Positions 2 to 34,669 of a stretch of DNA of 39,181 bases are shown one piece after another. The position numbers were made by a program, and so were the translations under genes. Below the pieces are notes generated by a model. It saw only the letters and a list, made by a program, of their open reading frames with translations. It was not told the DNA's origin and made no database searches. Source of the stretch: Elusimicrobiota bacterium (GTDB lineage Bacteria > Elusimicrobiota > Elusimicrobia > F11); assembly GCA_046153645.1 (NCBI GenBank), contig JBJXGI010000095.1, positions 1 through 39,181 of the forward strand, in the 5' to 3' direction. Within the stretch, counting starts at the first letter, position 1. The number at the start of each line of letters is the position of its first letter.

Positions 2-505
2 GGCGGGAATGCATTTACTTTAACAGCAACAGGCAATGACTTTATCTCTGGTTCCACTATTCTTTGGAATGGCTTAGAAAGAACAACCACTTTTATCAGT
101 GCCACTTCGCTAACAGCACTGATTCCCGCTTCGGATCTCACCTCAAGCGGAACTGTTAATGTGTCGGTGTTTACTTCAACTCCCGGCGGTGGCACTTCTG
201 CCTCTCAAATCTTCACAATTAATCAAGCCAGCAATCCAGCGCCAGTCCTATTGAGCATTTCCCCCAGCTCTACCACCGTTGGCGGAAGTGCGTTTACTTT
301 AACCGCATCAGGCAATGATTTTATCGCTGACTCCATCATTCGCTGGAATGGTTTAGATAGAGTCACTGCTTTTATCAATTCAACTTCCTTGACTGCTGTG
401 ATTCCTGTGTCCGATATCATCTCTAGTGGAACAGCAAATGTGACTGTCTATACTTCAACTCCTGGAGGAGGCGTTTCCACATCTCAACTTTTCACGATCA
501 ATCAA
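2..505 (+). repeat. Intragenic tandem repeat, 279-nt (93-aa) period, IPT/TIG domain
   Basis: ggcgggaatgcatttacttta at 2 recurs as ggcggaagtgcgtttacttta at 281; both units end in TSTPGGGxSxSQxFTINQ. Confidence 0.85.
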
Positions 506-7707: not shown

Positions 7708-7870
7708 TACCTGGAACCGGGGCATCTTTTTTAAGCCCTGATTTAGACCAGTGAATAAGAGACTCTTTCATTTGTTCAGCCAAGTGTATTTTTTCAGACC
7801 ATGATAAAAGACGCCTATCACGCTGCCAATGGGTCTGTTTCTCAAAGAGTTTCTTAATTTCATCATTCAC
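7679..7870 (-). CDS. Small basic hypothetical protein, probable partner of the nucleotidyltransferase
   Basis: GTG at 7870 overlaps the upstream gene's end; helical WQRDRRLLSWSEKI segment; the C-terminus runs into the tRNA fragment. Confidence 0.55.
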   Translation of the reverse strand: MNDEIKKLFEKQTHWQRDRRLLSWSEKIHLAEQMKESLIHWSKSGLKKDAPVPGSKSVGLRPS

Positions 7871-8372
7871 TTGGAAACCTCGATTCAAATTTCTTCCAAC
7901 TTTCTAATAAACCAAATCGCTCAGAAAGTTGGCTAATATCTTTTCTGGTTACACTCCCAGATTCAATAAGGGCAAGCACTCGCGCAAAATCTTTTGACCG
8001 CCCCACACTCAGTGCAATAACCGCCAGATAACAGGCACTAACCACACGAAGCGGAATACCTTCAAAATCAGCTACCTCAGCTTTTTCCATGGCCTCCTGA
8101 GTTAATGAGCTAAATACAGGAATAAATTGAACGGGCCAAATCCCCACCTTAATGGCCTCCCCTTCTGGCTGGAACCCTCTCGTTGAACAAAAACCATATA
8201 CGCCACTCAAAATATCAAGTCCTTTCTGCGGCGGAACTGCAACTAACAAATCTGCATCCATCGTTGCAACGGGTTCGGTGTAACGCATTTGAGCCACTGC
8301 ACCAAAAAGAGCGTAGTTTTGGATAACACCAACCGATAACATTTCATTCAATAATTGGGCGAGTTCTTTCAT
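7863..8372 (-). CDS. Nucleotidyltransferase-fold protein (putative TA/Abi-type)
   Basis: YALFGAVA...ATMDADLLV (G...DxD) and late GRSKD motif. Confidence 0.65.
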   Translation of the reverse strand: MKELAQLLNEMLSVGVIQNYALFGAVAQMRYTEPVATMDADLLVAVPPQKGLDILSGVYGFCSTRGFQPEGEAIKVGIWPVQFIPVFSSLTQEAMEKAEVADFEGIPLRVVSACYLAVIALSVGRSKDFARVLALIESGSVTRKDISQLSERFGLLESWKKFESRFPSE

Positions 8373-8392
8373 GGTTCATTTTAAGGAAAAAT

Positions 8393-8476
8393 TGCTGAGG
8401 GTAGGATTCGAACCTACGAAGGGCGTAGCCCAACAGATTTACAGTCTGTCCCCGTTGACCGCTTGGGTACCTCAGC
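8393..8476 (-). tRNA. tRNA-Tyr (GTA), CCA not encoded
   Basis: Reverse complement folds as a cloverleaf: acceptor gctgagg/cctcagc, anticodon loop ctGTAaa, long variable arm, T-loop ttcgaat. Confidence 0.96.
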
Positions 8477-8489
8477 TAAAATTTGATTC

Positions 8490-8570
8490 TTATTCGCTAT
8501 CAATCGCAATGTAATCGAATATATTTCTAAGCCAGCACTGCGCTTCAAATGCCCAGCTTATTTTTGCCCT
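8490..8570 (-). pseudogene. N-terminal fragment of a RelE/ParE-family toxin (start codon lost)
   Basis: Reads (AGG)AKISWAFEAQCWLRNIFDYIAIDSE*, matching the ParE N-terminal pattern; overlaps the stop of an antitoxin-like tail. Confidence 0.6.
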
Positions 8571-9592
8571 GTTTGGATCCGGTGCTGCATTTCTTCATTT
8601 GAGATAGTTTGGCCTTTATCAGAATTCTTCAGACCTCGATGAACCATTTCAATGATATCTTTATTCTCTGGATACTTCTTTAATACTTCTTTCAAAATCT
8701 TCTGAAATTCAGCACAGGAGGTCTTTTGTCCTTCGGCGATTTCCTTGGCACGTTCGTCATCGTATGGCTCTTCACCACTCCAATGATCGCACTCATCTTT
8801 TGCTCGCTTTACTAAATAGACTATTTTCTTCTCTGGAGAATTCAAATAAAGATCCGGGCGATTCACAGTCCTTGAGATTATCTCCACCTTCCCGCTCTTA
8901 TTAATAGAGATCATGACAGCTGCAGCTGCTGGATAAAAGTCCTTTAAACCAGATGAAAGTATAATTTCTGGATTATTGTCCTCATTCAAGTCGAAGGCCT
9001 GATTGACACGCCATACGTCTTCTATCTTTAATTCATCCCACTCAAAATCCAAATTCGCCCAAACCATGTTTGGCAACTTCTTGTTCAAGATATCGCAAAG
9101 CTTTCCCGATGTTACAATTCTCTCTATCAATAAACCAATTTTCCGTTTGTTGTTATCAATCTCAACAAAGTAGACTGAATCCCCAAATTGATAAATGGAC
9201 CGACGCTCATTTGAGCAGGCTTCCTGCCAATATTTCGCCTTTTCTGGACGAAATCCGTGCTTCTTAGCGATACCCTCATCCAAAAGAACATCATAGTAAG
9301 GACATCCACTAAACTCGACTTTGCCCTCAAGAATCTTTGTAGCCCCTTGTTTCATTGAGTTCTCAGATTTACCGAACTGTTTGTCGCGACACACCCCCCA
9401 CCAACTTCCTGCTGAAACACAAAAATCTGCGTCAACAGTCGGACTATTACAGTCCGCATAATTCCAGGCTGGCGATGGACCGACGTACCAGATCATGGAC
9501 AGTTTCTCGGGCCCACTAGCGCCAAAACAAATAACATGGGAACCTAGCATCCATCCCAAGAAAAGACCAGCGATGCCGACTTTTTTCTTCAT
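8558..9592 (-). CDS. Secreted Cys-rich hypothetical protein with an antitoxin-like C-terminal tail
   Basis: Signal peptide; many Cys; one DxNxDxxPE motif (FDLNEDNNPEIIL); ATGA-coupled to the HEPN gene. Confidence 0.7.
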   Translation of the reverse strand: MKKKVGIAGLFLGWMLGSHVICFGASGPEKLSMIWYVGPSPAWNYADCNSPTVDADFCVSAGSWWGVCRDKQFGKSENSMKQGATKILEGKVEFSGCPYYDVLLDEGIAKKHGFRPEKAKYWQEACSNERRSIYQFGDSVYFVEIDNNKRKIGLLIERIVTSGKLCDILNKKLPNMVWANLDFEWDELKIEDVWRVNQAFDLNEDNNPEIILSSGLKDFYPAAAAVMISINKSGKVEIISRTVNRPDLYLNSPEKKIVYLVKRAKDECDHWSGEEPYDDERAKEIAEGQKTSCAEFQKILKEVLKKYPENKDIIEMVHRGLKNSDKGQTISNEEMQHRIQTGQK

Positions 9593-9933
9593 CTAAATTC
9601 TTTGAGCATTTTTTCAATTGACTTTCTTAATGGTTCCAGCTGTTTGGTCGCGATGGTCCAAACGATTTCGATATCCACCTCAAAATATTCATGGATCGCA
9701 ATATTCCGGAAACCGACGACCCGAGTCCAATTGATCTCTTTATATCGAGATCGGAATTCTTCTGGAATCTGCTTGGCAGCTTCCCCGATAACTTCAAGGT
9801 TTCTGGTCACTCCGTCAATAAGTAGGTCGTCACCTTGAAAATCCTCAAAGGTCTTCCCTAAAACAAATCGTTGCGTCTTGTTGATGGCAGTCAAAATATC
9901 CTTGAGAAACAGACTGATATCGCGTTTAGACAA
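9589..9933 (-). CDS. hepT: HepT-like (DUF86) HEPN ribonuclease toxin
   Basis: RNLEVIGEAAK and RNIAIHEYF (RX4HXY); TTG start at 9933 overlaps the MNT gene end. Confidence 0.9.
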   Translation of the reverse strand: MSKRDISLFLKDILTAINKTQRFVLGKTFEDFQGDDLLIDGVTRNLEVIGEAAKQIPEEFRSRYKEINWTRVVGFRNIAIHEYFEVDIEIVWTIATKQLEPLRKSIEKMLKEFR

Positions 9934-10222
9934 GAACCAGATCCTCCTCAATCGATCGCAATAAATCAGGGTTCCTTTTGACCGCCCCTTTGGTGACCAA
10001 ATCCACTTTCATTCCCAACAGAATTTTCAAAAATTCATAAAGGTCCACAACCTCGAAACCAACTGGTTGATCAAAATCGACTAAGATATCCAAGTCGCTG
10101 TTCTCTTTTTGGTCACCTCTCACATAAGAACCAAACAAACCAAGACTTCGAACATGATAGGTATCCCGAAGCTCTTTTTTTTGGTTGGCCAATGTCCTTT
10201 TGATCTCGTCCAATGATTTCAT
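9926..10222 (-). CDS. mntA: Minimal nucleotidyltransferase (MNT) antitoxin
   Basis: LFGSYVRGDQKENSDLDILVDF (GSX10DXD), KVDLVT; 98 aa from ATG 10222. Confidence 0.9.
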   Translation of the reverse strand: MKSLDEIKRTLANQKKELRDTYHVRSLGLFGSYVRGDQKENSDLDILVDFDQPVGFEVVDLYEFLKILLGMKVDLVTKGAVKRNPDLLRSIEEDLVLV

Positions 10223-10325
10223 ATGTTTATGCCTTACTTTTAAAAATAAGCTTCTTATCATTTATTCGTTTTCGGACACCAAAACTACAAAATTTAGAGA
10301 TTTCTTCGAAGGACATTATTTTGGC

Positions 10326-15421: not shown

Positions 15422-18400
15422 TTACTGAATAAAAAATTCGAGGATGAAATTTGACCGGTATAGTGTTTGGGGAAAAGCCATTGAAAAATCTGCTTCAAAA
15501 TACACATAATCTGGAGTTAGCGTGCCTGAAAAACCATTTCCCTGTGAGGTATGGCTTCCCAAAGCTTTTCTCAAGACAACATCATTACTTCCATCTTGAA
15601 ACGCCGTAATTCCAAAATCAGGAATATTAGGCGTCTGACGATCTTTCATAATAAGCCATTGAAATGAATTGGGGGTATTATCATAAGGACTATTAGCAGA
15701 AGGAATAGCGCTAGTAGAATCTTTAATACTCCAGGCCACATTTAATTTATTTGAAGTTGTCGGCTGACCTGCCTGATCCCGAATTAAACCAGAAGGATCA
15801 GAGTCAAGATTCGAAGTATTCCCCGGCGTTGGGTCAACGTATCGAGGAGAGAAAGAAGGGTTGGTATTATCCGTGTATATTTGTATTCCCCATGAAGGAT
15901 CGTCTGTAATAGGTTGCACATCCAAAACAAGCATTTGCTGGGCTCGTACCCAACTGGTTGGTAATGAAGCCACACTCCAAGTAATTGTACTGGTCTCAAC
16001 AAGATTATTAACATTTAATAATTTGGTTCGTGTGATGGGATAAACATTAAAGGGATTAAATTTCCAATATGCAAACATAAGCCAAGCCGCTGAACTGGCT
16101 GCTTGATTGGAAGGATCCATCATAAAACCATAAGCAGTTCCTACATTGGTGGCGTAAGCCAAACCTTGTCCATTGGGAGACGTATTAATAACCGCTTTTA
16201 GAATTTCATTTAAGTATTGATCACCCTTGGCTTTATTATCGGTGGCATAAAAAGCAACAGCCATTTGAGCAGTCCCTTCTAACCAAACAGCATCTTTATC
16301 GACAGGAGCTGGGGTCCCCGGGGGATTAACATAGGGACCAGAAAAATCAAACCCGGTCACTGGCACACCTGTTAAATCAGCTGGCTTCGTATTTAAAAAA
16401 TCAGTTTCCGCTTGAGAAAGCACCACCGTGTAAGAAGATAAAGTTAAAGGAGCCCAAGAATAACAATCAAGTCCTCGATCATTATTATTGGCACCACTGC
16501 TATATTTTCCAACTCGGAATCTATTTTCAGCTGGAATATACATTTGTGTTTCAAGCCATGTTTTAATTTGATCGGCATAAATGTTATAGGTATTGTTATT
16601 TCTGAATTTAGCGTAAGCTTTAAAAGTGGCATATACGTCTAATTGATGCTCTGTCGCTTTATTGGTCATTAAAACGCCACCGCTGGTTCTACCGAAGAAA
16701 ACGCTTCCATCCGTATCACGCAGTCCAGCGATAAAACTAGCCAAAGAATCAATGACCGTATCATATGTGGACTGATTGGTTACATTTCTATAGTGTAAAA
16801 GAGCCAAAAGCATCCAAGCATTCGGACCCACACTACGCTCACCATTAATAATCCCAAAAGAAGACGCGGTTGAACTTACTGTATATTCATTATGAAAGCC
16901 AATAACGCCGGAATCATGAATCCCTTTATAAACATCAAAAATTTTCTTAGCTAAAAGCGTATCGCGTTTATATGTCATGGCCATTCCGGCTAAGGCTTCA
17001 TCATAAGTAACGGCACGGGGTAAATTTTTAAAACTTCGCACCAAACCTGTTGGTTCTTGCAATTCTTTAAGCCCAACATACACTTTTTCCGGATCAGGAA
17101 ATCCGCCATCGCTGGTTAAAAACTTAACATCATCAATTCCAAATTCTCCGCCCACCACTGGACCAATTTGAGAAGATAGAGCACCAACAGCAAAATAAGT
17201 TTGAATTTGATCAAAATCAAGTAAAGGTTCTTTGGCTTTAAATTCTGAAAGGGCAATAAAGACTCTTTGCCATGTATTGTTAAGAGGAATTCCAATTTCA
17301 CTTAAACGAATTTTGGATCTTTCAGCGCCTGGTGCGATATTACCGGAGCGAATAGCCACTTGGAGATCATAGGATGTTTTAACCCAAAACGTGAGATATC
17401 CCGATTCGTAAAAACGCATAAACCGAGTTCCACTAGCACCATCAACATTGGTAAACCAAACAGCAAATGCGTCTTGTAACCCAGAATTATTAACAAGATT
17501 AAACGTGGCTCGTCTATAGGTGACCCCTTCAGGAGACCCTGGGTCATTTTGTTCATTAAGTCCCATGACAGTTCCAGGGTTAGAACCTTGCGCGACACCC
17601 ACATAACCACCGGAGCCTAAATCAGAGTAGACATTAAGTGATTGAGTCCAGGTAATAGTGGCCACTGTCACCGGAGCTGAAGAAATAATAGCTCCTTGTG
17701 TTGCACGAACAGAACCACTCGCAGGGACATTAACTGAAGTTAAAAGTGTACTCAACCCTTGCGTTGGGTTTACTGAACCAATTCCCCCCGTCACACTCCA
17801 AGTCGGGAATGCATCTACAGTAACCCCATTGGCGTCTTTACCAACCGCATAAAAACTCCGCAGAGATCCAAAGGGAACTGTAATTGAACTTGGGTTAATG
17901 ATGAAATGAGTCAAGGGGCCTGGTTGCGCCGTATCCCATCTTAAGTTGTCAATATAAAAAGTTTGTGCCGATGAAATATTGCCAATAGCAAAAATAGAAA
18001 ATAAAAGTTTGGTGCGAGAAATATCTGCCCAAGGACGAGGCCCGGCCAAATCTTTGATTGGTACCACAACAGAACGCCATGTATCATCAAAAGTAACATA
18101 GTTGCTTAAATTTACTTTTGAAAGTTCAGCCCCTGCGGGAGTGTTTCCGGACCGAACACCAACAATTAATTTATTATTGAGAGCCGCCGGCGCTTTGAGC
18201 CAAAACCGAAGTGAGCCGTCATAATATCGATTCATGTCACGCGTAATCGCATCAGAAGCACTCGTGGACCATTGAATAAACCAACCAGAAAAACTTGCTG
18301 CGGTAGAAGTGTTATCTGAATTAATTGTTGTTTTAAATCGTTTCACACCTTCACGAACATCAGTGCTTGATTCATCTAATAAAGTTGGCGCACTCACCCC

Positions 18401-19378
18401 AAGGCCACCAAAGGCGCTCAATAGTTTTGAATCTGTTTCAATCACGATTGAATTGGCGATTGTTTCGCTGAGAAGCCCTAATTCTTGATTGAGATTAGAG
18501 TTATTAATTGTAAGGGCGGCCGTAATATTGGCTGCACCAAATGAACTGGTCAAAGAGCCTGAATTGGTGTTTGCTGTAAAAGTTGAAGCCATAACTCTTG
18601 TACTGGGGTTAACAGTCCCAACTGCACCTGGGACAGAAAAATCGCTATATAAATAAATAGGATCATTGGGCAGACCAGCGGCTCGACCTTCAACAGTAAA
18701 CTGTCTTTTTTTCCCAGGATTTACGGTTGTGGCTGAAGGGAAAATGACAAGAGAGTTAATTGGTTTAGTCCAACGCATATGATCAATTAAAAAAGTTGTA
18801 GGGGTCACGGCACCACCATTTGTTCGCGAAAAAACATAAGGACTTCGAATTTGAGTTAGATTAACTCCGCCGGCATTGTTGAAGTTTGCCAAAGGAATAT
18901 TAATTTCTTGCCATAACCCATTGGTGGTAGGAATATCGACAAAGTTAGTGACAATAGGTGCTCCGTGTTCAATTCCTAAACGAAGTGATTCAGTTGATTT
19001 GAGCCAAAACCGAACAGTCCCTCCTGAGTAATCTGAAAAATCCCTGAGCTGAACAAGAAAATTACCATATCCCGTAGAATTCATATAAAAAATACCACCC
19101 CAAGAATTTACAGTAATACTGGTAACCGTAACACCTTCTGGTGCTGGGGCATCTATTCCGGTTACTACTTTCACATAATCCAGTTGAATTCCACTACCCG
19201 AAAACGTCCCTTCTGAAAAAGGGAGAACACTATAAAGCCCAATATCACCTATATATTCCTTCATGGCTTCGGCGTAAATTGAAGAGCGCATGAACAATGA
19301 AAACAAAAAAAGAAAAAAGAATATTGTCATCCTCAAATATCTCTGTCTGAAATCTAAATTATTTTTGTTTTGGTTCAT
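15422..19378 (-). CDS. Large secreted modular protein: 3 CBM-like beta-sandwiches, Ig-like domains, putative (alpha/alpha)6 glycosidase domain, C-terminal pilin-like domain
   Basis: Signal peptide; three repeats with (V/L)xFW(L/V)K...WxxxxIxx...FxIDxx(R/K)(W/F); helical domain with TYDEAL, TEHQLD, LDCYSW, WLEGTAQMA; last ~200 aa homologous to 21585-22361. Confidence 0.8.
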   Translation of the reverse strand: MNQNKNNLDFRQRYLRMTIFFFLFLFSLFMRSSIYAEAMKEYIGDIGLYSVLPFSEGTFSGSGIQLDYVKVVTGIDAPAPEGVTVTSITVNSWGGIFYMNSTGYGNFLVQLRDFSDYSGGTVRFWLKSTESLRLGIEHGAPIVTNFVDIPTTNGLWQEINIPLANFNNAGGVNLTQIRSPYVFSRTNGGAVTPTTFLIDHMRWTKPINSLVIFPSATTVNPGKKRQFTVEGRAAGLPNDPIYLYSDFSVPGAVGTVNPSTRVMASTFTANTNSGSLTSSFGAANITAALTINNSNLNQELGLLSETIANSIVIETDSKLLSAFGGLGVSAPTLLDESSTDVREGVKRFKTTINSDNTSTAASFSGWFIQWSTSASDAITRDMNRYYDGSLRFWLKAPAALNNKLIVGVRSGNTPAGAELSKVNLSNYVTFDDTWRSVVVPIKDLAGPRPWADISRTKLLFSIFAIGNISSAQTFYIDNLRWDTAQPGPLTHFIINPSSITVPFGSLRSFYAVGKDANGVTVDAFPTWSVTGGIGSVNPTQGLSTLLTSVNVPASGSVRATQGAIISSAPVTVATITWTQSLNVYSDLGSGGYVGVAQGSNPGTVMGLNEQNDPGSPEGVTYRRATFNLVNNSGLQDAFAVWFTNVDGASGTRFMRFYESGYLTFWVKTSYDLQVAIRSGNIAPGAERSKIRLSEIGIPLNNTWQRVFIALSEFKAKEPLLDFDQIQTYFAVGALSSQIGPVVGGEFGIDDVKFLTSDGGFPDPEKVYVGLKELQEPTGLVRSFKNLPRAVTYDEALAGMAMTYKRDTLLAKKIFDVYKGIHDSGVIGFHNEYTVSSTASSFGIINGERSVGPNAWMLLALLHYRNVTNQSTYDTVIDSLASFIAGLRDTDGSVFFGRTSGGVLMTNKATEHQLDVYATFKAYAKFRNNNTYNIYADQIKTWLETQMYIPAENRFRVGKYSSGANNNDRGLDCYSWAPLTLSSYTVVLSQAETDFLNTKPADLTGVPVTGFDFSGPYVNPPGTPAPVDKDAVWLEGTAQMAVAFYATDNKAKGDQYLNEILKAVINTSPNGQGLAYATNVGTAYGFMMDPSNQAASSAAWLMFAYWKFNPFNVYPITRTKLLNVNNLVETSTITWSVASLPTSWVRAQQMLVLDVQPITDDPSWGIQIYTDNTNPSFSPRYVDPTPGNTSNLDSDPSGLIRDQAGQPTTSNKLNVAWSIKDSTSAIPSANSPYDNTPNSFQWLIMKDRQTPNIPDFGITAFQDGSNDVVLRKALGSHTSQGNGFSGTLTPDYVYFEADFSMAFPQTLYRSNFILEFFIQ

Positions 19379-19381
19379 AAA

Positions 19382-20677
19382 TTATTTGGCCACCGCGATA
19401 AGGCCACTGGTTTTTTGGCCATCGACTGTATATTGATAAATATAAACACCACTTTCGACAATTTTCCCATTTTCGTCGCGACCGTCCCACTGTAAATCGG
19501 TGTTACTCATGACGGTTTTAATTCTATGACCCGTCATATCAAAAATATCGATTTTGACATTTGAAGTAATATCGCCCAAAACAAAATTCGCTGAATCATT
19601 GGTTCCGTCTCCATTAGGAGTAATGATTTTTTCCATAGGACGACGGCCTTCCGGGGTCAGTGCGCCTGCGGGTAAAAGTGCCACAAAATTAAGTTTTGCC
19701 AAACGAACTGAAATTGTATTGGTTTGACGGTTAATTGACCCTCCAATAATTCTCCATTGAAACCCATCCCACCAAGCCAAAGTTGTTTTTTCGACAGGAA
19801 TATTTGTTCCATCAATTAAGCCGTCTTGACCATTGGGAAAAGTAAAATCAGGATAACCAATGGCCAGTTGAGTCAACCCATCAAACAAAGGCTGAGCCTC
19901 TAACTTATAAACACGAAGAGCATTTTCAACACCTGGTGGAATAAGAGGGCTATTTAATGGAATTTCATCAATTGTAATTGTAGTGGGCCCATGAAGAATA
20001 CCAGCAGGAATATCTAAAGTCGTATTTCCAACAATCGGGTTTCCATCAACTAAATCAAAACGCCCACCTTCAATTCCAAATACTTGAGCCGCATTGGCTT
20101 GAACTCCCAAAGAAATAAAAGGATCGGGGTCAGCACCGCTCGTTTTTGGAAAAGTAATTTGAGATAAAACTTCCAACGTTCCATTAACATACCGAATTCG
20201 CTCGGCCACAATACGATACTGAAAAGTCCCTGTAACCACTTTATCAGAAGGAATTTGAAAGGCAAAAGCAATGGGATCACTTCCTTCAACTGGAGCTAAC
20301 TCTTCCAAAGAAGGTAAAGGCTGTCCTGGAACTCCGGATGGCGGTGGAATAAACCGGTATTGAATTCTTATTCGGACTTCACGAGAAGCTTCTGGACCAA
20401 AATCACTTCCTGGTTTGGTTCGAGATATAAATGGAATAAGACCAGGGGGAACCTCTTGCCCTGCTTCACCGACAATAATAATTTCTTTCGTTATTTCTGA
20501 AGTTCTAGTGAGTGGTGTATGTTGAATTTTTAAATCTTGCGCTTGAACAACTCCCCCTGTTACAACCGCAGCGCCCACAGTTTTAACACTCACTGATTGG
20601 AACGCAAAACCACTTTCGCTCATTCCAATAAGGAATGCAGCCAGTAAAAGAAAGTGATTTTTAATTTTCATCTTCAT
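19382..20677 (-). CDS. Secreted protein with pilin-type N-terminal strand, ZU5-like middle region and T9SS type-B-like (CHU_C/gliding-motility) C-terminal domain
   Basis: Mature N-terminus FQSVSVKTVGAAVVTGG; EGG...LDIPAGIL; ITPNGDGTND...IFDMTG...WDGRDENGKIVESGVYIY. Confidence 0.8.
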   Translation of the reverse strand: MKMKIKNHFLLLAAFLIGMSESGFAFQSVSVKTVGAAVVTGGVVQAQDLKIQHTPLTRTSEITKEIIIVGEAGQEVPPGLIPFISRTKPGSDFGPEASREVRIRIQYRFIPPPSGVPGQPLPSLEELAPVEGSDPIAFAFQIPSDKVVTGTFQYRIVAERIRYVNGTLEVLSQITFPKTSGADPDPFISLGVQANAAQVFGIEGGRFDLVDGNPIVGNTTLDIPAGILHGPTTITIDEIPLNSPLIPPGVENALRVYKLEAQPLFDGLTQLAIGYPDFTFPNGQDGLIDGTNIPVEKTTLAWWDGFQWRIIGGSINRQTNTISVRLAKLNFVALLPAGALTPEGRRPMEKIITPNGDGTNDSANFVLGDITSNVKIDIFDMTGHRIKTVMSNTDLQWDGRDENGKIVESGVYIYQYTVDGQKTSGLIAVAK

Positions 20678-20686: not shown

Positions 20687-21493
20687 TTATTTCAGCTCTA
20701 CTTTGCCGGATTCTGTTAATGTGAAATTTCGCTCACTTTTTTCAATCAAAAACTCTCGCTCAGAATCTAAAATATTGATATTGGCCTTATATTTTCCTGG
20801 AAGTAGCTTAATATCACGAACCGCAGATGAATATTCCCTCAATTTTCCAGGATAGGTAGGTTGCCCTTTAGGAAAAGAGAAATTAACCATCAACTCATCT
20901 TCCGAATTGTAGATTTCAATAAGTCCTTCTGGCCTTAAATGAACATTCCCCTTATTTCGAATAAGCAGTCCACAATTAAATGTATTTGAAGAAACTTTAA
21001 GCCCTAAAGCAGCAATGTCTCCATCTACTTTTTCTGTTCCAGAAACAGCAGCGTAAATAGCTGAACTCATGACAAATTCAATAGAGGAACGACTTGCGCT
21101 CTTGGTGCGAAAAGAAAGCATTCCCACAAGTTCACCCTTGGCGGTTTTGGGAATATTAACGGTAAATTTAACGGTTTTTGACTCATCTGGTTTCAATACA
21201 AAAGGAATTGAGTCAATGTTTAACCAATCAGCAACTTTTATTTTTTTATTTTCATTTAGAATAAACCAATTTTTCGTTGTGGGAATGACATCAATGGTTT
21301 CTGGATCTGTGTTGAGAATTGTAACTTGGCCAGACACTTTTTCGCCTGGGAGCATTTTAAATTTTTGAATATTGGGAGTAATCGAAAGCGCATGAATGCT
21401 AGAAAAATAACTGGTGAGAATAAGCCCCACAAACATAAAAATTCTTTTTACTCCATCTTTGGGACTTTGAAGGAGAGCGAATTTTTTGCTCAT
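20687..21493 (-). CDS. Putative periplasmic pilus-assembly chaperone (PapD/EcpB/DUF916-like two-Ig-domain protein)
   Basis: Signal peptide ending SIHA, then LSITP...LPGEKVSGQVTILN, W...FVLKPDESKTVKFTVNIP, and IRNKGNVHLRP. Start moved downstream of the hairpin. Confidence 0.65.
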   Translation of the reverse strand: MSKKFALLQSPKDGVKRIFMFVGLILTSYFSSIHALSITPNIQKFKMLPGEKVSGQVTILNTDPETIDVIPTTKNWFILNENKKIKVADWLNIDSIPFVLKPDESKTVKFTVNIPKTAKGELVGMLSFRTKSASRSSIEFVMSSAIYAAVSGTEKVDGDIAALGLKVSSNTFNCGLLIRNKGNVHLRPEGLIEIYNSEDELMVNFSFPKGQPTYPGKLREYSSAVRDIKLLPGKYKANINILDSEREFLIEKSERNFTLTESGKVELK

Positions 21494-21540
21494 TATTTGG
21501 GACCCCGTTATTATATTCATATTATTTTTAAGATAAGACC

Positions 21541-21566
21541 AGCGGAGCCGCTGTTGCGGCTCCGCT
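21541..21566 (-). terminator. GC-rich 11-bp hairpin just after the putative major pilin gene (leaky terminator or mRNA stabiliser)
   Basis: agcggagccgc-tgtt-gcggctccgct; only a weak U-tract follows on the minus strand. Confidence 0.7.
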
Positions 21567-21584
21567 AGCAAATCTTTTTAACTC

Positions 21585-22361
21585 TTACTGAATATAAGCT
21601 TCAACTCTCAAGTTGGAGCGGTAAGTCTCCTGAACTTGCGCAGTGATGAAATTGCCTTGTAAGTAAACAAAGCTATTGGCACCATTGGGATGAGCTCCGA
21701 AGTCAGCTGGCGCTTGACCGAAGTGAATTTCGGCTCCACCAGCAGCTGTGTTGGTACGAATCATTGTAATGAAGGCTTCACCATCAACAAAGGCCAATGA
21801 GTTCAAAGCAGGAATATTTTGATCATTATATCTGTCTTTGAAATACAACCATTGGAAACTGTTGGGATCGCCTGCATTGTTTGGTTCAGCAGATGTAGGC
21901 GCTGTGATGGAAGAAGCTTTGATTGTCCACGCCATAGGAAGCGGTGACGCACTTGTCACACCAGAAGCTCCTTTCACTAAACCAGCGGCCATAGAGTCAG
22001 GATTGGTTTTATCACCAGGAGTGGGGTCAACGAACCTTGTGGTGGCATCGGACGCGGTATTATCAGAATAAATCTGAACTCCGCTTCCTACTCCGAGTAC
22101 AGTGGCATTCAAGAGAAGACCTTGATCGGCTCTCTTCCAGCCAGTTGAGGGAGGGGTCACACCAGACCAGGTAACAGTCCCACGAGGGGTTGTCCAGTTA
22201 CTGATATCACGGATATTCACGGACACGTTCGAGGTATTGGATCCGCCAACTAAAACAGAGGCAGCAACCGTAGCTCGACTGACAGATTGGAACGCGTGTA
22301 CAGGCGTCCAAACTCCGAGAGTAGCCGCGAACAGACTAAGAACTACTATTCGCTTATTCAT
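21585..22361 (-). CDS. Secreted beta-rich protein, putative major pilin/fibre subunit
   Basis: Strong SD (aaaggag), 23-aa signal peptide, small-residue-rich and Cys-free; shares its N-terminal strand with 19382-20677 and its body with the C-terminus of 15422-19378. Confidence 0.7.
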   Translation of the reverse strand: MNKRIVVLSLFAATLGVWTPVHAFQSVSRATVAASVLVGGSNTSNVSVNIRDISNWTTPRGTVTWSGVTPPSTGWKRADQGLLLNATVLGVGSGVQIYSDNTASDATTRFVDPTPGDKTNPDSMAAGLVKGASGVTSASPLPMAWTIKASSITAPTSAEPNNAGDPNSFQWLYFKDRYNDQNIPALNSLAFVDGEAFITMIRTNTAAGGAEIHFGQAPADFGAHPNGANSFVYLQGNFITAQVQETYRSNLRVEAYIQ

Positions 22362-22418: not shown

Positions 22419-23420
22419 CTAAAAAGCTGTTGTAATGGAAACTCTATGACTGCCATTACTACCATCAACATTTAACGGCCATAAAATGGCGTAATCAAAT
22501 TTGAGTGACATTTTATTTTTGGCGATAGGAATGACATATCCCATACCACCGCCCAGTTGATCTTTGTTACCACCAAAACGGAGGGCGAGGATATCTTTGA
22601 CCATCCACGCTTCCCAACCGGCTGAAACCACGGTTTGACCTTTACGCCTAGAAATATCAAGCATGGGATTTAATAAAGGAAGAGCTGGATCATGATAAGA
22701 AACTCCAATGGCATATCGAGCAGGGACCCGGTCCGTTGTTTGTAACCCCATATCGGGTTCATTTATATTCTTACCAGCAAAACCAAATTTTAGGCCAGGA
22801 AGATTTTCAAAATGAGGATGAATCATAAGCCCTAGATCAATAGCAAAAGCACCAGAATCACGCCCTCCTCTAAAAACAGGGTCCACATCAGACCGTTGAT
22901 TGGTAGCAAAAGAGCGTTTTAGATATTTTAAATTTGCTCCATAAGATAAGACTGGTTTACTTGGAAGACTTTCAAATTGATAGGAATCGGCTGCAGTTAA
23001 AGAAAAGGCATCTTCTCTATAAAGAGTTGAGGCTGAAAAATTGGTCCAACTAAAAGCATAACTTCCAAATTTTTTATTTTTAATATTAGGAGCATAACTG
23101 AAATAACCCAATCCCAATCGAGAGGTATCTTCCCCTGAATATAGATTGAGCCCAGTAAATAATTGGGCATACATAAAGGTAAGTTCTGTTTGTGAAAGAA
23201 GAGCGATTCCTGAAGGGTTATAAACGGGTGCATTTGAATCTTCCGCGTAAGCTGTATAAGCGCCACCAAGCGCGGCCGGGCGAGCGCCCCATAAAAGTTC
23301 TTGAAAAGCACTATAAGAGGGAGAAACCAAAGAAAAGAGGGTGCAGAGGAGCAAACCGGTTTTTCGTAAAAAACCAAAAGACAAAACCCTCTTCATTGAT
23401 GGGCCAAACACTTTAAACAT
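22419..23420 (-). CDS. PorV/PorP(SprF)-like outer-membrane beta-barrel
   Basis: GARPAALGGAYTA...YNPSGIA N-terminal motif, KNINEP, DYA...SHRVSITTAF with terminal Phe; SD ggag before 23420. Confidence 0.8.
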   Translation of the reverse strand: MFKVFGPSMKRVLSFGFLRKTGLLLCTLFSLVSPSYSAFQELLWGARPAALGGAYTAYAEDSNAPVYNPSGIALLSQTELTFMYAQLFTGLNLYSGEDTSRLGLGYFSYAPNIKNKKFGSYAFSWTNFSASTLYREDAFSLTAADSYQFESLPSKPVLSYGANLKYLKRSFATNQRSDVDPVFRGGRDSGAFAIDLGLMIHPHFENLPGLKFGFAGKNINEPDMGLQTTDRVPARYAIGVSYHDPALPLLNPMLDISRRKGQTVVSAGWEAWMVKDILALRFGGNKDQLGGGMGYVIPIAKNKMSLKFDYAILWPLNVDGSNGSHRVSITTAF

Positions 23421-23646: not shown

Positions 23647-25176
23647 CTAAGCCGTTTTTTCAAACTGATGGGCAATGTTCCGGTAAAAACAAATACTGCC
23701 TTTTTGATTTTTTTTAGCCCAATAAAGCGCGCGGTCAGCCGCTTCAATTAAATCACGGCCCGTACGCGCGTCCGAGGTATACATAGAAATACCCAAGGTT
23801 ACGCTGACATGAATAGATTGCCCACTCGACGTAGGAAGGGCTGTTTTCTTGAGAGCCGAAGTTAATCGTTCTGCCATCAACCAAGCTTCCTGCTCTGTTA
23901 TTTCTGGCAAAAGCATGACGAATTCATCACCAGCGTATCGCGCTGCTAAGTCAATGCGCCTGGTATTAACTTTAATTGTTTGGGCCAGGAATTCGAGTAC
24001 TCGATCTCCTAATAAATGCCCATGGGTATCATTAATCTGTTTGAATGAATCAACATCCATCATGACCAAAGCCAAGTTATATGAATACCGATCGGCTCGA
24101 TCCATTTCCTCTTTTAAACGCTCTTGGAAATACCGGTAAACATAGAGTTTGGTTAATCCATCGGTAATCGCTTGACGCTCAATATCCTCAAATAAACGGG
24201 CGTTTAAAATTGCCATTCCAACTTGAACAGCTAACGAACGGAGTGATTCAATTTGATCATCATCTATCATTTGTTGGCTCAATAAATTATCAACAGCCAA
24301 ACATCCCACCACTTGACCATTAACAATTAATGGAATATAGGCAACCCTACCACCAACCACATGAGCATTAAACCCACTCGCATTCGATAAAATAGCATCA
24401 ACAAGAGAATTAATTCCTGATCTTAAAACATATGTCTCTTGTTCTAAATCAAGAAATCGGTCTGGAATTTGCATCCCCGCATAGCCCTTCACTTCAGATC
24501 GCTCAGAATCAACCAGATAAAACCTGACTCGGTCAAAATTCAGGCGCCTGACAATACTTTCTGCCACAGACTCCAACATTTCTCTTAAACGAGGCCTCTC
24601 GAATACGGCAGAGGCGACTTCAGAGCCTGCTTTTAAAAATTGGGCCCTTTTTTTATTTTTATCTTCTTTATGTAATTGAATTAATTTTGTTGAAATAATT
24701 TCACCTATATCTTCTAACAAGGGAAAATCTCTTGCTCCATTTCTACGTTTTCCATAAAAAGAAGGAAGATGCCCCAAAATTTTTCCACTGGCCAAAGCAT
24801 GAGGTCGTTCTATTTGAAGAGCTCCAATTAATTCTGCCCCAGACTGGAGCGGAATAAAGGCCACCCAAGGTCTTTTACTAGAAATAACAACTGGCTTTCT
24901 CTCAAAAACCAACGGTGCCAATAAACTGTTTTGACCAATAATAATTTCTTCTTCACCCTCATAAAGTGCTCCTTCATGAAGAATATATTGCATAACCATG
25001 GTCTTTTTCTGAGGAACCCACCAAAAAATAGAAACCGAAGACAAATTAAGGCGATCACTCAAATACCCCATCCCACCTTGAAACATTGACTCAATATTTT
25101 CCGATGATTGATTCAATTGGTTTTGAAAATTCCGAAGGAGTGACTCGAACATGGTTAAAGCTCTAAACTGACTCAT
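23647..25176 (-). CDS. GAF-domain diguanylate cyclase
   Basis: TDGLTKLY, DVDSFKQINDTHGHLLGD, RxxD I-site (RRID), RYAGDEF; GAF regions upstream; no obvious TM helices. Confidence 0.92.
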   Translation of the reverse strand: MSQFRALTMFESLLRNFQNQLNQSSENIESMFQGGMGYLSDRLNLSSVSIFWWVPQKKTMVMQYILHEGALYEGEEEIIIGQNSLLAPLVFERKPVVISSKRPWVAFIPLQSGAELIGALQIERPHALASGKILGHLPSFYGKRRNGARDFPLLEDIGEIISTKLIQLHKEDKNKKRAQFLKAGSEVASAVFERPRLREMLESVAESIVRRLNFDRVRFYLVDSERSEVKGYAGMQIPDRFLDLEQETYVLRSGINSLVDAILSNASGFNAHVVGGRVAYIPLIVNGQVVGCLAVDNLLSQQMIDDDQIESLRSLAVQVGMAILNARLFEDIERQAITDGLTKLYVYRYFQERLKEEMDRADRYSYNLALVMMDVDSFKQINDTHGHLLGDRVLEFLAQTIKVNTRRIDLAARYAGDEFVMLLPEITEQEAWLMAERLTSALKKTALPTSSGQSIHVSVTLGISMYTSDARTGRDLIEAADRALYWAKKNQKGSICFYRNIAHQFEKTA

Positions 25177-26450
25177 GCGGCAACTCCCGTGTTAACCTTG
25201 GGACGATAACGATGGATTGATAAAGTTGTTTTTATATCATGATTGGCCACTGCAATTTCTTGCTGAAGTAAAGGCAAAGAATACGCTTTATCTCGAATTG
25301 ACGACAAAACCCTTCCTCCCATTTTGGCCAATATCTGCTCAACGGAACCTAATTCGACGATTTTTGGTAATCGCCTCGCGCATGAAAAAGAATCCCAAAA
25401 AACATTTCTTGCCCAAGGGAAACGCTCAAATAATACATCCATGACAGATAAATGCGCAGGAAGAGCCCCAATATTTCGAGCATGCGATAACAAGCGTTCC
25501 GGTTCAGACATAAATTGAATAAATTGCCACGCCAAGTCTTTTTCTTTGGAATAGTTAAGAACCGATAAATTACTTCCACCTAAAAAAGTAAAACGCCCCT
25601 TTGGCCCAGAAGGGAGAGGAACAATTCCGACATTTTCAATGACTTCAGGTTGAGCATACTGATATTGGGGGTTAAAACATGTATCAACAGGCCAACTGCC
25701 AGACAACTGCATAGCGGCATGCCCTGTAAAAAAATTTCCTTCGGGCATAAAATTATTTGGAATAGGCATGAGTCCGTCATTAATTAAATCAAAATAATAA
25801 ACACAACCTTCAATAAGACGTGCGTGAGTTAAACTCGCTTCCTTCGTTTCTTCTGCTATAAATTCTCCCCCCGCACCCCAAACCCATGGGGCCAAGTCGT
25901 GCATTTGTACTGATATTTTTTGCCCGGGAAATCCAAGAGGCACTTTAATTTTCTCTGTTTCCCCTTTTTTAATATATGAATGAATTTCTTGGCATGCGGA
26001 TTTCAGACCCTTCCAATCCTCTAAAGAACTTACTTTAATTCCCATTTTTTCAAAAATATCCCGACGATAATACAGCACCCGAATATCAGTAAACCAAGGA
26101 ACTCCAAATAAATCATGGGAAAAAGAACCGTCTGATGAATCACCAATCCAACCTGCCGCTTGCGCGTGAGAATTCAAAATGTCAGAGGGAACTTTATCAA
26201 GAGCATTAAGATAACTAAGCGTTGTCGTCCAGGTTGTTCCCACTTGAATAACATCGGGAGAAGAAATAGAACGCCCTTTAACAACATCCATGAGCTGATT
26301 CCAGGCTAAAGACCAGGGATGAATAGAAAGCTGCACCTTCACTTCTGGATGAATCTGCTCAAACTCATTAATTAAATTTGAAACCGCTGCTCGGGTCGCA
26401 AACCCAGCATTTGGCATAACCCAAAAATGTAGTTCTTTTCTATAACTCAC
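25173..26450 (-). CDS. Sugar ABC-type solute-binding-fold protein lacking a signal peptide
   Basis: PDVIQVGTTW, GVPWFTDIRVLYYRRD, FLGGSNL; GTG start with SD ggag and an in-frame TAG 6 codons upstream. Confidence 0.85.
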   Translation of the reverse strand: MSYRKELHFWVMPNAGFATRAAVSNLINEFEQIHPEVKVQLSIHPWSLAWNQLMDVVKGRSISSPDVIQVGTTWTTTLSYLNALDKVPSDILNSHAQAAGWIGDSSDGSFSHDLFGVPWFTDIRVLYYRRDIFEKMGIKVSSLEDWKGLKSACQEIHSYIKKGETEKIKVPLGFPGQKISVQMHDLAPWVWGAGGEFIAEETKEASLTHARLIEGCVYYFDLINDGLMPIPNNFMPEGNFFTGHAAMQLSGSWPVDTCFNPQYQYAQPEVIENVGIVPLPSGPKGRFTFLGGSNLSVLNYSKEKDLAWQFIQFMSEPERLLSHARNIGALPAHLSVMDVLFERFPWARNVFWDSFSCARRLPKIVELGSVEQILAKMGGRVLSSIRDKAYSLPLLQQEIAVANHDIKTTLSIHRYRPKVNTGVAA

Positions 26451-26503
26451 TGAAGCTCCGTTGATCTATTCAACCGCTTTAATTAATAATAATCAGGAAA
26501 TTT

Positions 26504-27418
26504 TCATAATTCCCATCTAATTCCATCAATATCGACTGTTAAAGGTGTATTCAACAGTCCTGCCACTAAAGCAAAAGGCACATTTATAGAAGTTTTTACC
26601 AAGCCAGGATAAGATGCTCCAATGGGCAAAGATATTTCCTGCCAATCAGTGCTTAACCGATTAAAACCATTAGAACCACTGACCAAAATAAAAGAAACGG
26701 TTTGTGGTGTCCGGTCACTAACATTAATTCGTATTTGTTCACCCACAGATAAAGTGCGATTAAGTCTCATCGTAAACTTAAGCGTACTTAATGAAGAAAG
26801 ATTTTTTGATAATCCTGCTGTTGGACCCGGAGCGCATCCGACACCGGGAGAGGTGGCCTTATCTAATGTAATTCCCCAAAAATCACCAGTAACCAAATTT
26901 GTCGCTCGCTGATATTTGGTTCCTTCAGGGGTGTAACCTGTGGATACTTCGCTTAAAAAATTAGATGGACATATCGTAAAAATATCACTTGAAATCCCTG
27001 CTTCGGAGGGAAGACCATCGTCGGTATAAACATTAAAAAAAGATGAAACTGGTTTGTAGGCCACAACCGCAATTTGAACGGTGGTGGTAAGACCGTCATA
27101 AGTAGCCGTAACAACTGCATCACCTAACTGATTGGCTTGAAACGTAACTGTTGGACCAATGGAAGAGCTAAGAGTTCCAACAGCACTTGAGGAAACAGTC
27201 CAAGTTGGAGTTACATTAATATCCTGACCATTTAACTGCCCTTTTGCAATAAGAGTGACACTTTCATTTTTAACAACGGAGGTCGCTGGAGGAGTAACAG
27301 AAAATTCATAAGTAGAAGCACTCAGGCGATTTTTTTTGGAGCAGGAAGAAAGAATAAATAAAGAACCTAACATACAGGTAAAAAGAAAAAAAGATTTATT
27401 CAAACGGTTTAATAACAT
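26504..27418 (-). CDS. Lipoprotein with Ig-like and CBM-like domains
   Basis: Lipobox LSSC; Ig+CBM pair resembling modules in 15422-19378 (PTWxV, NVYxD, PEG, WQEISLPI, IDGIRW). Confidence 0.75.
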   Translation of the reverse strand: MLLNRLNKSFFLFTCMLGSLFILSSCSKKNRLSASTYEFSVTPPATSVVKNESVTLIAKGQLNGQDINVTPTWTVSSSAVGTLSSSIGPTVTFQANQLGDAVVTATYDGLTTTVQIAVVAYKPVSSFFNVYTDDGLPSEAGISSDIFTICPSNFLSEVSTGYTPEGTKYQRATNLVTGDFWGITLDKATSPGVGCAPGPTAGLSKNLSSLSTLKFTMRLNRTLSVGEQIRINVSDRTPQTVSFILVSGSNGFNRLSTDWQEISLPIGASYPGLVKTSINVPFALVAGLLNTPLTVDIDGIRWEL

Positions 27419-27473
27419 ATTTCTCCAAATTTAACCGAGTGTAAAATTAATAAAAAAAAACGGCGGGTGCAAC

Positions 27474-28073
27474 CTAAAATCTTTTTTTCCAGCGAACCTG
27501 GGTTTTTCCTGAAAAATAGGCTAATTCCATAGAATGATCTTGCACAGAATAAAGGGAGTCATAGGCACTCTTATAGGCATCGAACATGGAGGCAATCCAT
27601 AAAGCCCCCGCAGAAATCCCCAAGACCAAGGCAATGGAACGTTCATCTTCATAGTCTGAATAAAGAGAATCATCTTTAGAACCCTTATTCTTATACTCAT
27701 CATAAGACTGATTCGCCTGTTGTCGAACAACATAACTCCCAACTGCGGTGGTTAAAAATCCAAAAAGGAATACACCTCCTTTTTTTCTTTGTTGATTAAA
27801 TGCCTGTCCCCAACCGGGAACAATAACCGAACGAATGAGCGCACTCTTAGGAGATCTTTGTGTCAAATCAAACACGTGATATTGAATTTCGTCGCCTTCT
27901 CCTTTAACACCAAAGATACGGCCAAACACAGCGCGCCCAGCTTCAGCAGGGAGAAAAATAGGTTTATCCAAATTTAAATAGTCAATCCCTTGATCTTGAG
28001 CGTATCCCAAGGAAACGTTTAAAGTAAAAATGGTTAAAACCGATAGAAAGTGAAATGTTGTTTTAAGGTTCAT
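27474..28073 (-). CDS. DUF5683-like membrane protein
   Basis: SPKSALIRSVIVPGWGQAFN...KKG, two hydrophobic helices, LWIASMFDAY. Confidence 0.7.
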   Translation of the reverse strand: MNLKTTFHFLSVLTIFTLNVSLGYAQDQGIDYLNLDKPIFLPAEAGRAVFGRIFGVKGEGDEIQYHVFDLTQRSPKSALIRSVIVPGWGQAFNQQRKKGGVFLFGFLTTAVGSYVVRQQANQSYDEYKNKGSKDDSLYSDYEDERSIALVLGISAGALWIASMFDAYKSAYDSLYSVQDHSMELAYFSGKTQVRWKKRF

Positions 28074-28722
28074 ACTGGATATCATCTATATAAATTGTTC
28101 CACCCTCTCCAGCATTGGTGGTTCGCGGCGGTTGAGCATATTGAAAAGAGAAAGTAGCGAATACTTTCACATTATTAAAATGTGAGGGGGTGATATTCAA
28201 TGTAACTGCCCTCCAATCAGAAGTAAGATCAGTAGAAGTTAATTCGGTTCTAGAAGGGGTGATTCCTCCATCCCCATCATCCGGCCCTTCAATACGTAAA
28301 GTTGTATGACTTGATAATGCTCCCCTGATAAAAAATTTCATTTTGGTATAACCAGAAGCAGAAAGATCTTTACCCATAGCAGAAGTTAAATTTGTGAAAT
28401 TGGGAGTGATGAGCAATGAAAATCCAGCAAACAAATGATTACCGGGAGATGGGTCATTCCCATTCCACGTGTATCCAATGGCATTAACTGTTCGACGAGG
28501 ACTGGTTTGATCAGCAAGATTAATTGATTGATTATCTCCGCTAGGAATAAAACCTAACCCACCACCCGTCTTCAGTTCTTCATCATAAATTGTATAAATC
28601 GCAGCACTTTGAGGAACCGCACTTTCACTCATCGGATTGGTCAATCGTTCAACAGGATTCCTTTTACAAGCAGAAAAACCGAGCAAAAAAAACAACACAG
28701 ACAATCTTAACATCCTTGTCAC
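28063..28722 (-). CDS. Lipoprotein with a single CBM-like beta-sandwich
   Basis: Lipobox FSAC; DLSASGYTKMKFFIRG, LTSDWRAVTL, IYIDDIQY. Confidence 0.75.
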   Translation of the reverse strand: MTRMLRLSVLFFLLGFSACKRNPVERLTNPMSESAVPQSAAIYTIYDEELKTGGGLGFIPSGDNQSINLADQTSPRRTVNAIGYTWNGNDPSPGNHLFAGFSLLITPNFTNLTSAMGKDLSASGYTKMKFFIRGALSSHTTLRIEGPDDGDGGITPSRTELTSTDLTSDWRAVTLNITPSHFNNVKVFATFSFQYAQPPRTTNAGEGGTIYIDDIQYEP

Positions 28723-29879: not shown

Positions 29880-29884
29880 AGAGA

Positions 29885-29917
29885 ACCCTGCTCCCTAGTT
29901 TCCTATGAGAGCAGGGT
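29885..29917 (-). terminator. Intra-operon hairpin (leaky terminator or stabiliser)
   Basis: Minus strand accctgctc-tcatag-GAAA-ctagg-gagcagggt, ending 5 nt before the next ATG. Confidence 0.6.
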
Positions 29918-29924
29918 AAAAAAA

Positions 29925-30596: not shown

Positions 30597-30655
30597 TTTT
30601 ACTCCTCCTCGTTTTGAGAGATTTTATACATCATTCCCATCTCTCCGGGGAAAAA

Positions 30656-34572: not shown

Positions 34573-34669
34573 TTCAGTTAACGCCGTTATCTATAGAAAA
34601 TTTCTTTGCTCGACGGATTTCATCGGCAAAACTTTCGGAAAGAGTTTACTACAATCGCGAAAAGAATCG

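Follow-up and report, generated by a model that had tools for sequence, protein, structure and literature searches.

The locus studied here raises the question of what a protein domain does when it closes a giant, cargo-carrying protein and also stands alone, a few genes away, as a small protein with a signal peptide. The DNA, called the window below, is the whole stretch of 39,181 nucleotides (nt) of contig JBJXGI010000095.1 from an Elusimicrobiota bacterium (assembly GCA_046153645.1). The giant protein of 1318 amino acids (aa) ends in a domain, here T, that resembles the 258-aa protein P of the same operon. We consider it probable that the operon encodes a donor-strand pilus whose assembly is guided by a chaperone; P would be the shaft, the giant an acceptor-only tip and a 431-aa protein the donor-only base, which would be exported by a C-terminal sorting domain (CTD) and held on the operon's own outer-membrane barrel. 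The features needed to begin with are:

15422..16045, minus strand: T, the C-terminal pilin-like domain of the giant, residues 1112-1318 plus stop (BLASTP, profiles, census)
21585..22361, minus strand: P, 258-aa stand-alone protein with signal peptide 1-23, N-terminal strand 24-40 and beta-rich core 41-258 (translation, model)
15422..19378, minus strand: 1318-aa giant with signal-peptide-like N-terminus, a CBM30-like module, further modules resembling carbohydrate-binding modules (CBM), a helical-barrel domain and T (Pfam, model)
16043..17098, minus strand: helical domain of the giant, residues 761-1112, which probably forms a glycosidase-like (alpha/alpha)6 barrel (model, alignment A6)

Homology between the giant's tail and protein P

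A sequence-only reading of the window had proposed that the last ~200 aa of the giant are a paralogue of P, and this was confirmed over about 207 aa by BLASTP, shuffling and profile alignment. The pairwise alignment joined giant residues 1131-1318 to P residues 62-258 (74/208 identities, 36%, E 7e-30), and all eight colinear blocks quoted in that reading (e.g. TITWS/TVTWS and RYVDPTPG/RFVDPTPG) were located at their places in the translations and were aligned by BLASTP. The local alignment score of T and P was 280, against a mean of 36.4 (sd 6.1) and a maximum of 73 in 1000 shuffles. The region had been placed at 15422..16040, which was right, with the start of the domain lying nearer to window position 16045 than to 16040. 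These two were the only copies of the domain detected by tblastn in the own genome, which is 99.7% complete.

Profiles of 63 stand-alone proteins (alignment A2) and 29 fused domains (alignment A3) were compared with HHalign and gave a probability of 100 and an E of 1.3e-53 over 202 columns, the first of which was P residue 42. Because the profiles align only from this residue, the likeness begins past the N-terminal strand and the GG turn of P, as had also been read from the letters. The residues of the giant that precede T are the end of the helical domain and are unrelated to P. Neither P nor T matched an NCBIfam family and no Pfam family recurred among the 63 stand-alone and 29 fused members, so the domain did not map to a known monomeric family. 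The last strand was conserved, with Glu at position -5 in 85/102 and Phe/Tyr at -3 in 79/102 sequences. The idea that a terminal strand serves chaperone recognition therefore held in part: this strand is conserved and a chaperone-like gene is adjacent, but a free C-terminus is not always required, since cargo followed the domain in 8/110 proteins. Given these exceptions, we no longer take a free C-terminus after the last strand as a general rule.

The model of P, based on 31 sequences (mean pLDDT 82.9, pTM 0.80), had a confident beta-rich core at residues 41-258, while residues 1-39 were unplaced. Its best VIA match was TLP-1b (9ikk; Z 6.2, rmsd 4.2, 142 residues). Others were CS17 (Z 5.5), Csu (Z 5.0), TasA (8aur; Z 5.0, rmsd 4.3, 143 residues), CfaB and CfaE (Z 4.9) and the pilin domains of PapG/FimH, and many chaperone-usher pilins were matched at Z 4.3-5.5, all below 8. 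WxL structures were absent from the 50 VIA matches listed for P, to which they may still be related, and the pilin profile had no significant sequence match in the PDB. Among Atlas features, taken as leads only, SCPU reached 0.91 (15% of cluster members) and WxL reached 0.90 (56%). By itself, the modelled fold is weakly consistent with a donor-strand pilin.

The cargo joined to the domain varied with the locus, comprising CBM-like modules, CBM30-like ones among them, GH2-like barrels, GH81 and Ig domains. In the giant of the window the CBM30-like module lies at residues 363-480 and scored above the Pfam cut-off. The helical domain had no Pfam match and no significant PDB match; Asp/Glu residues D33, E150, D211, D251 and E274 (alignment A6 numbering) were invariant, and the domain is a candidate new glycosidase family. 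The helical-barrel domain also occurs as separate proteins and within other subunits. An orphan tip gene away from the operon (L077:6714-10634) encodes GH81 with a C-terminal pilin-like domain.

The N-terminal strand, the candidate base subunit and the chaperone-like gene

On the minus strand of the window the operon begins with the 333-aa PorV-like barrel and continues with P, the chaperone-like protein, the 431-aa protein and the giant; all five products have signal-peptide-like N-termini. Scanning genome contigs with a single protein gave no match, whereas the alignment as query found homologous loci. The census covered 57 loci, eight of which had a second, Omnitrophota-type form and some of which came from one genome. 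All five genes lay within the fetched stretch in 23/57 loci, many of the remaining ones being truncated at contig ends. The loci held 110 domain-bearing proteins, divided into 60 short ones, 42 called C-terminal fusions and eight with the domain first; several loci had 2-3 stand-alone copies. The following features bear on the strand:

22242..22292, minus strand: candidate donor strand of P, residues 24-40 (conservation, model)
20552..20602, minus strand: residues 26-42 of the candidate base subunit, a possible donor strand resembling that of P (sequence likeness)
19382..20677, minus strand: 431-aa candidate base or anchor with signal peptide, P-like strand, Ig-like domain 45-195, ZU5-like domain 193-337 and sorting domain 344-431 (HMM, model)
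19385..19648, minus strand: C-terminal sorting domain of the T9SS (type IX secretion system) type (TIGR04131, TIGR04183, VIA)

The strand of P was conserved, with Ala34 in 59/63 and Gly40 in 52/63 family members. When checked against the donor consensus of the WxL/Elr pilus, [S/T]-x-[G/A]-x-[V/I]-x-F, the small-residue position was Ala in 59/63, the motif [GA]x[VI]xF was found in 10/63 and the looser [GA]x[VILAFT]x[FVILT] in 53/63. The N-terminal part of the P profile was matched by 56/60 short copies; of the other four, three consisted of signal peptide and core only and one was probably mis-started. Among the 42 called C-terminal fusions, 36 matched the P profile only from a position of at least 33, five had no match to it at threshold and one was a long stand-alone copy misfiled by length. 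When the eight domain-first proteins were inspected by eye, the signal peptide was followed by a short strand of the form [GA]x[VL]x[VI] in six and by none in one, and one united strand, domain and sorting tail. At L082:6586-8364 a single chain of 592 aa carries the pilin-like domain together with an N-terminal strand and a CTD, and no chaperone gene was seen in its fetched stretch.

With fold neighbours that are largely donor-strand pilins, and with the strand present in stand-alone copies and missing from C-terminal fusions, the earlier suggestion of a shared acceptor or polymerisation domain gained support. As the giant has the domain and lacks the strand, it could only end a chain; it would be a tip adhesin or enzyme, T being its acceptor-only attachment module, and sugar-binding and glycosidase-like cargo would be put at the tip.

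The strand stretch of P was repeated at the start of the mature 431-aa protein, and the profile of the 431-type proteins matched that of P in columns 1-44 only, signal peptide included. Co-variation was tested with 16-residue windows of the pilin and the 431-type protein from 31 loci and 20000 permutations. Strand pairs from one locus scored 21.2 on average, compared with 6.9 for other pairs (31 pairs), a value that 0/20000 permutations reached; within family f1 the scores were 36.0 and 19.2, and again 0/20000 permutations reached the former. A short stretch common to two genes and changing together is as expected if both enter the same groove. The 431-aa protein, which has the strand and no match to the domain, would then end the other side of the chain.

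The sorting domain of this candidate base scored 38.2 bits with TIGR04131 (type B; cut-off 35) and 27.3 bits with TIGR04183 (type A; cut-off 23), and VIA superposed it on a T9SS substrate CTD in 8glk (Z 9.7, rmsd 2.1, 75 residues). A weak match to FlgD_ig was also found. The model of the 431-aa protein had a pLDDT of 84.2, and its ZU5-like domain gave a VIA match of Z 11.1 (rmsd 2.6, 118 residues). A Foldseek search with the whole model was swamped by multi-domain noise and was set aside in favour of the VIA matches. In the ZU5-like domain (window 19667-20101, minus strand) an HFS motif, which we take to be the ZU5 self-cleavage site, was present in 7/29 members of alignment A5 and not in the window's copy; it could permit release of the fibre in some lineages.

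Two further features lie between the genes of P and the base:

20687..21451, minus strand: chaperone-like protein, ~254 aa (weak WxLIP/DUF916 similarity)
21538..21569, minus strand: GC-rich RNA hairpin of 14 pairs, directly 3' of the P gene (folding)

The chaperone-like protein of the window scored 21.0 bits with WxLIP_PGBD (cut-off 27.3), and EfmWxLIP1 structures matched it at E 0.26-0.3. At E<=0.01, WxLIP_PGBD was found in 10/31 chaperone-like members, the best at 3e-5, and WxLIP_HBD in one member. PapD_N (PF00345) was not found in the own genome, where the control was positive, and it was not listed among the families for the 31 members at E<=0.01. Alignment A4 of the chaperone-like proteins contained a signal peptide, and a C-terminal hydrophobic membrane helix was not seen in it. 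An Arg two positions past the N-terminal Pro in 18/31 members presumably resembles Arg8 of PapD. The weak WxLIP similarity, the constant synteny and the analogy with ElrE (bioRxiv 10.64898/2026.10.17.759780) lead us to infer that the 254-aa protein acts as a chaperone.

The hairpin after P had a folding energy of -33.5 kcal/mol over 70 nt and a z of -8.1. It is overlapped by a TTG at 21571, which is probably not the start of the chaperone-like gene. When hairpins were called at z<-3 relative to a doublet shuffle, they followed 30/58 stand-alone genes and 17/190 other operon genes (chaperone 5/52, base 2/46, fused 3/49, barrel 7/43), and their sequences differed. Restricting the count to gaps of at least 40 nt gave 27/43 stand-alone and 12/84 other genes, in which kin are not independent. 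The hairpin may act as a transcript stabiliser or attenuator. Together with the strong ribosome-binding site on the P gene, the hairpins after stand-alone genes suggest that P is produced in excess, which fits a shaft subunit. A promoter scan was at chance (20 found, 19.4 expected), and the operon had no RNA holder listed.

Export, anchoring and the weighing of readings

An usher (PF00577) was detected neither in the own genome (0/1; 99.7% complete) nor in other operon-carrying genomes (0/40), and the E. coli control was positive. Since no usher gene was found, the fibre is likely held on the outer membrane by parts resembling type IX secretion, one of which the operon itself encodes:

22419..23420, minus strand: 333-aa outer-membrane barrel of the PorV superfamily (PorV_fam match, grouping with the barrels of related operons)

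In a tree of barrels, those of such operons clustered although they came from distant genomes, with 37/40 in the starred group (97/93) and 39/40 in the unstarred group. The operon-barrel group stood apart from the other barrels of the own genome, and the label required 2 changes, compared with 16.9 when shuffled; long branches make three rows of the tree unsure. The own genome of 2.6 Mb had 23 PorV-family matches and 10 type A CTD matches. It also contains a SprA-like open reading frame (ORF) of 1801 aa (G000:C100:33154-38559, also L087:9155-14560) with three TIGR04189 stretches and a weak SprA_N match. Such homologues suggest, by sequence, a type IX-like translocon outside Bacteroidota. GldM and GldN gave no match in a search in which the control genomes were silent too, and GldL and GldK were not searched.

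The pilin-like domain was found in 56/301 genomes of the phylum, 47 of these 56 having at least two matches, and it was not found in 88/88 genomes of family f7. The nearest named homologues (41-47% identity) came from Elusimicrobiota assemblies, and further homologue records bore the titles Firestonebacteria, Goldiibacteriota, Omnitrophota, Caldiserica, Clostridia and Planctomycetia. As a contrast set we used 17 genomes from the homologous loci, nine with the CTD/barrel form and eight with the other form. The SprA-like gene was found in 8/9 of the former and 0/8 of the latter. Genomes of the other form (titles Omnitrophota or Planctomycetia) had pilin, fused subunit and chaperone, but their fetched stretches contained neither a CTD base nor a barrel. 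Loci of this type are:

L124:5048-7633, L125:6927-10832, L129:7219-9801, L119:10078-13983, L134:14249-14944

Their base-type proteins retained the N-terminal strand, carried PKD or ZU5-like domains and ended in CFI-box-CTERM in 4/4 complete and tested cases. A GspC-like gene followed the base in one locus scanned, and genes of like size and ending did so in three more; a large protein came after the operon, which in L134 has 1341 aa. Secretins were found in five of these genomes on contigs other than that of the operon, so that only the GspC-like neighbour points to a link with type II secretion. At the level of sequence, the tail of the base changes with the secretion genes present.

For 10/17 other barrels examined in the own genome, a CTD-ending ORF lay directly before the PorV-like barrel gene (G000, contigs C20, C30, C33, C40, C43, C69, C71, C74, C84 and C99). 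The operon barrel was fused to an OmpA-like peptidoglycan-binding domain at L078:279-1700, L113:4870-6465, L117:4168-5715 and L118:11177-12889. A 5'-open ORF at window 2-1609 (plus strand) has choice-of-anchor Z repeats, DUF4082 and a CTD-like end and is probably another cargo of the type IX-like system. Upstream of the operon, window 23647-37799 (minus strand) contains a sugar-use cluster with an ABC transporter, a GH2-like enzyme, a 657-aa protein without family match, a DUF5683 protein, CBM-like proteins (one fused to OmpA), a solute-binding protein and a GAF-GGDEF protein; its synteny is largely kept in family f1 and partly in others. At window 7863-10261 (minus strand) short ORFs lie between an efflux cluster and a polyphosphate-kinase-like gene, one of which (169 aa) is nucleotidyltransferase-like by eye.

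In the donor-strand pilus that we favour, all five products would reach the periplasm through their signal peptides, where a chaperone, the 254-aa protein, would hold each groove. P would be the abundant shaft subunit and polymerise by exchange of donor strands; its fold neighbours, the conserved strand left free in the model and the hairpin that follows its gene point to this role. The giant would end the chain on one side and the 431-aa protein on the other. The sorting domain of the base would be exported by the SprA-like protein and afterwards be kept on the operon's PorV-like barrel, like type B cargo on PorP/SprF, so that barrel and translocon would take the place of the usher.

A number of points weigh against this reading. 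Neither a fibre nor binding nor expression was observed. The fold matches of P all have Z below 8, a level at which a common arrangement alone may explain a match; glycosidase domains are among them (Z 5.7 and 5.1), and Foldseek with the model of P gave no match at E<=0.001. The co-variation of the strands was not significant in family f17 (6.0 and 2.9, p=0.10, 10 pairs). The own pilin ranked first for only 9/31 anchors and among the top three for 16/31, figures that include about seven anchors in which the automatic window missed the N-terminal strand. The operon barrel reached 50.7 bits with PorV_fam, below the cut-off of 90, and no PorP/SprF model matched it. The SprA-like protein scored 49.6 bits at best, where the TIGR04189 cut-off is 200, and because its gene occurs in 260/301 genomes of the phylum (54/56 pilin-positive ones) its presence does not discriminate within the phylum. 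The eight genomes without a SprA-like match are small and incomplete and probably closely related, and therefore count as one event and not as eight. Finally, P and the giant themselves have no sorting domain.

For subunits without a CTD, the simplest route across the outer membrane would be as one polymer led by the base. A tentative extension of the donor-strand reading, which we rate as possible yet doubtful, is that the base exits first, CTD-first, through the SprA-like translocon and drags the strand-exchanged polymer behind it. The fibre would then grow at its periplasmic end, and the tip enzyme would stop growth and exit last, the reverse of the chaperone-usher order; Omnitrophota-type loci would re-route the same kit by a CFI-box-CTERM tail beside a type II secretion gene. 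If so, the pilus would belong to a new class, whose secretion system is picked by the base subunit, and a working type IX-like translocon would be present across a phylum outside Bacteroidota.

The same strand-lending chemistry might instead build a short fixed complex of base, one or a few P and tip, which shows an enzyme near the surface. We regard this as unlikely. The list of parts fits it equally well, the single chain at L082:6586-8364 unites strand, domain and sorting tail, and the lack of an observed fibre suits it; on the other hand, the hairpin and the strong ribosome-binding site suggest an excess of P, several loci have 2-3 stand-alone copies, and nothing in the P sequence limits the length of a chain, since P has both strand and domain. 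Quite improbable, in our estimate, is a periplasmic scaffold, in which the chain remains periplasmic and is docked by its CTD/FlgD-like domain to the barrel's inner face, where glucan-processing enzymes would be organised. The weak FlgD_ig match, the failure to match GldM/GldN (control silent), the nearby sugar ABC transporter and OmpA-CBM protein and the OmpA fusions of some barrels would fit such a scaffold, whereas the CTD superposes on those of T9SS substrates, the 10/17 other PorV-like genes directly follow an ORF with a CTD-like end, and in genomes without a SprA-like match a different sorting signal replaces the tail.

The export route could also be a pore that was not recognised, the pilus otherwise being chaperone-usher-like and the CTD protein and PorV-like barrel serving as anchor only or as bystanders. 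The 657-aa protein (window 30656-32629) has no family match and lies upstream in several loci, and an usher HMM can miss a remote pore. We nevertheless hold this to be very improbable: no 657-aa homologue was found in the fetched stretch of the complete operons L022, L023, L064, L068, L073, L074, L080 and L081, the CTD base and the PorV-like barrel stay with the pilin, and the 657-aa protein is not similar to the large protein after the Omnitrophota-type operon. Least credible to us is that the domain is a monomeric carbohydrate- or envelope-binding module, alone in P and appended in the giant, with the strand as a pro-peptide or linker. Weak fold matches including accessory domains of glycosidases, and a low confidence at residues 24-39 that fits plain disorder, speak for it; it leaves unexplained the conservation of the strand, its loss in C-terminal fusions, its repeat on a third protein, the co-variation and the constant chaperone-like gene.

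Comparison with known systems

To our knowledge, every chaperone-assisted donor-strand pilus of bacteria with an outer membrane needs an usher. If the donor-strand reading is true, the operon represents a third route: its pilus polymer would carry exchangeable tips, enzymes or lectins, and type IX-like parts would export and anchor it, the signal being on one subunit only. It would also give a testable role to an unnamed family present in 56/301 genomes, have SprA-like and PorV-like proteins acting outside Bacteroidota, and offer a candidate function for the CFI-box-CTERM tail. The recently described usher-less pili, Elr/WxL and Pam, belong to cells without an outer membrane (bioRxiv 10.64898/2026.10.17.759780, PMC13278184). 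No paper on the present combination was found in our literature searches, although more distant systems could be listed in the supplementary files of the Elr and Pam preprints.

The Elr/WxL pilus of Enterococcus faecalis has a small pilin whose donor strand is N-terminal, a large tip adhesin, a chaperone and an anchored donor-strand base, is made without an usher and was found by its authors only in Bacillota (bioRxiv 10.64898/2026.10.17.759780). The tip with a C-terminal pilin domain and variable cargo is the same in both systems, the proposed roles of pilin, chaperone and base are alike, the chaperone-like protein weakly matches WxLIP_PGBD, and Ala stands at the small-residue position of the strand. 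They differ in that the chaperone here is without a visible membrane helix, the base ends in a T9SS sorting domain and not in LPxTG, and an outer-membrane barrel is encoded in the operon; the WxL domain (PF13731) was found in 0/63 stand-alone and 0/29 fused members at E<=0.1. The Pam pili of CPR bacteria are donor-strand pili with chaperones, an acceptor-only tip (PamT), a donor-only anchor (PamR) and no usher (PMC13278184), and the operon would share this set of parts. Pam differs in that its chaperones and anchor are membrane-anchored, its cells have no outer membrane and its pilins have two domains, whereas the model of P has a single one.

Chaperone-usher pili (archaic Csu/SCPU, alternate CFA/I-CS17, classical Fim/Pap) supply many of the weak fold neighbours of P and share with the present system a soluble chaperone-like protein and a tip that has a C-terminal pilin domain and no donor strand. 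The 431-aa base is presumably comparable to PapH, as a donor-only terminator. Unlike those pili, the operon comes with no usher and no PapD_N match, and its pilin core is larger (~215 aa). TLP-1a/b is similar to P in size, includes its best fold match and has an N-terminal strand that is likewise predicted to be disordered in the monomer (PMC11494351). With TLP-1 and TasA (8aur), however, identity is 8-13%, Z is below 8, rmsd exceeds 4 and there was no PDB sequence match.

In Bacteroidota, type B cargo exits SprA with its CTD first and is then retained by a barrel dedicated to it (PMC10994853, PMC9143113). The operon corresponds to this in its type B sorting domain, which scored above cut-off, in its dedicated barrel gene and in the SprA-like gene of its genome, and the fusion of some barrels to an OmpA-like domain recalls PorE. 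The known cargo is a single chain, whereas here it would be the base of a candidate polymer, in a host outside Bacteroidota; the barrel matches PorV_fam weakly and PorP/SprF not at all, and GldM/GldN gave no match (control silent). We concluded that the system would work like Elr/WxL, chaperone-usher and Pam pili, yet departs from each of them in a defining feature, and that its anchor appears to be borrowed from a system like T9SS type B.

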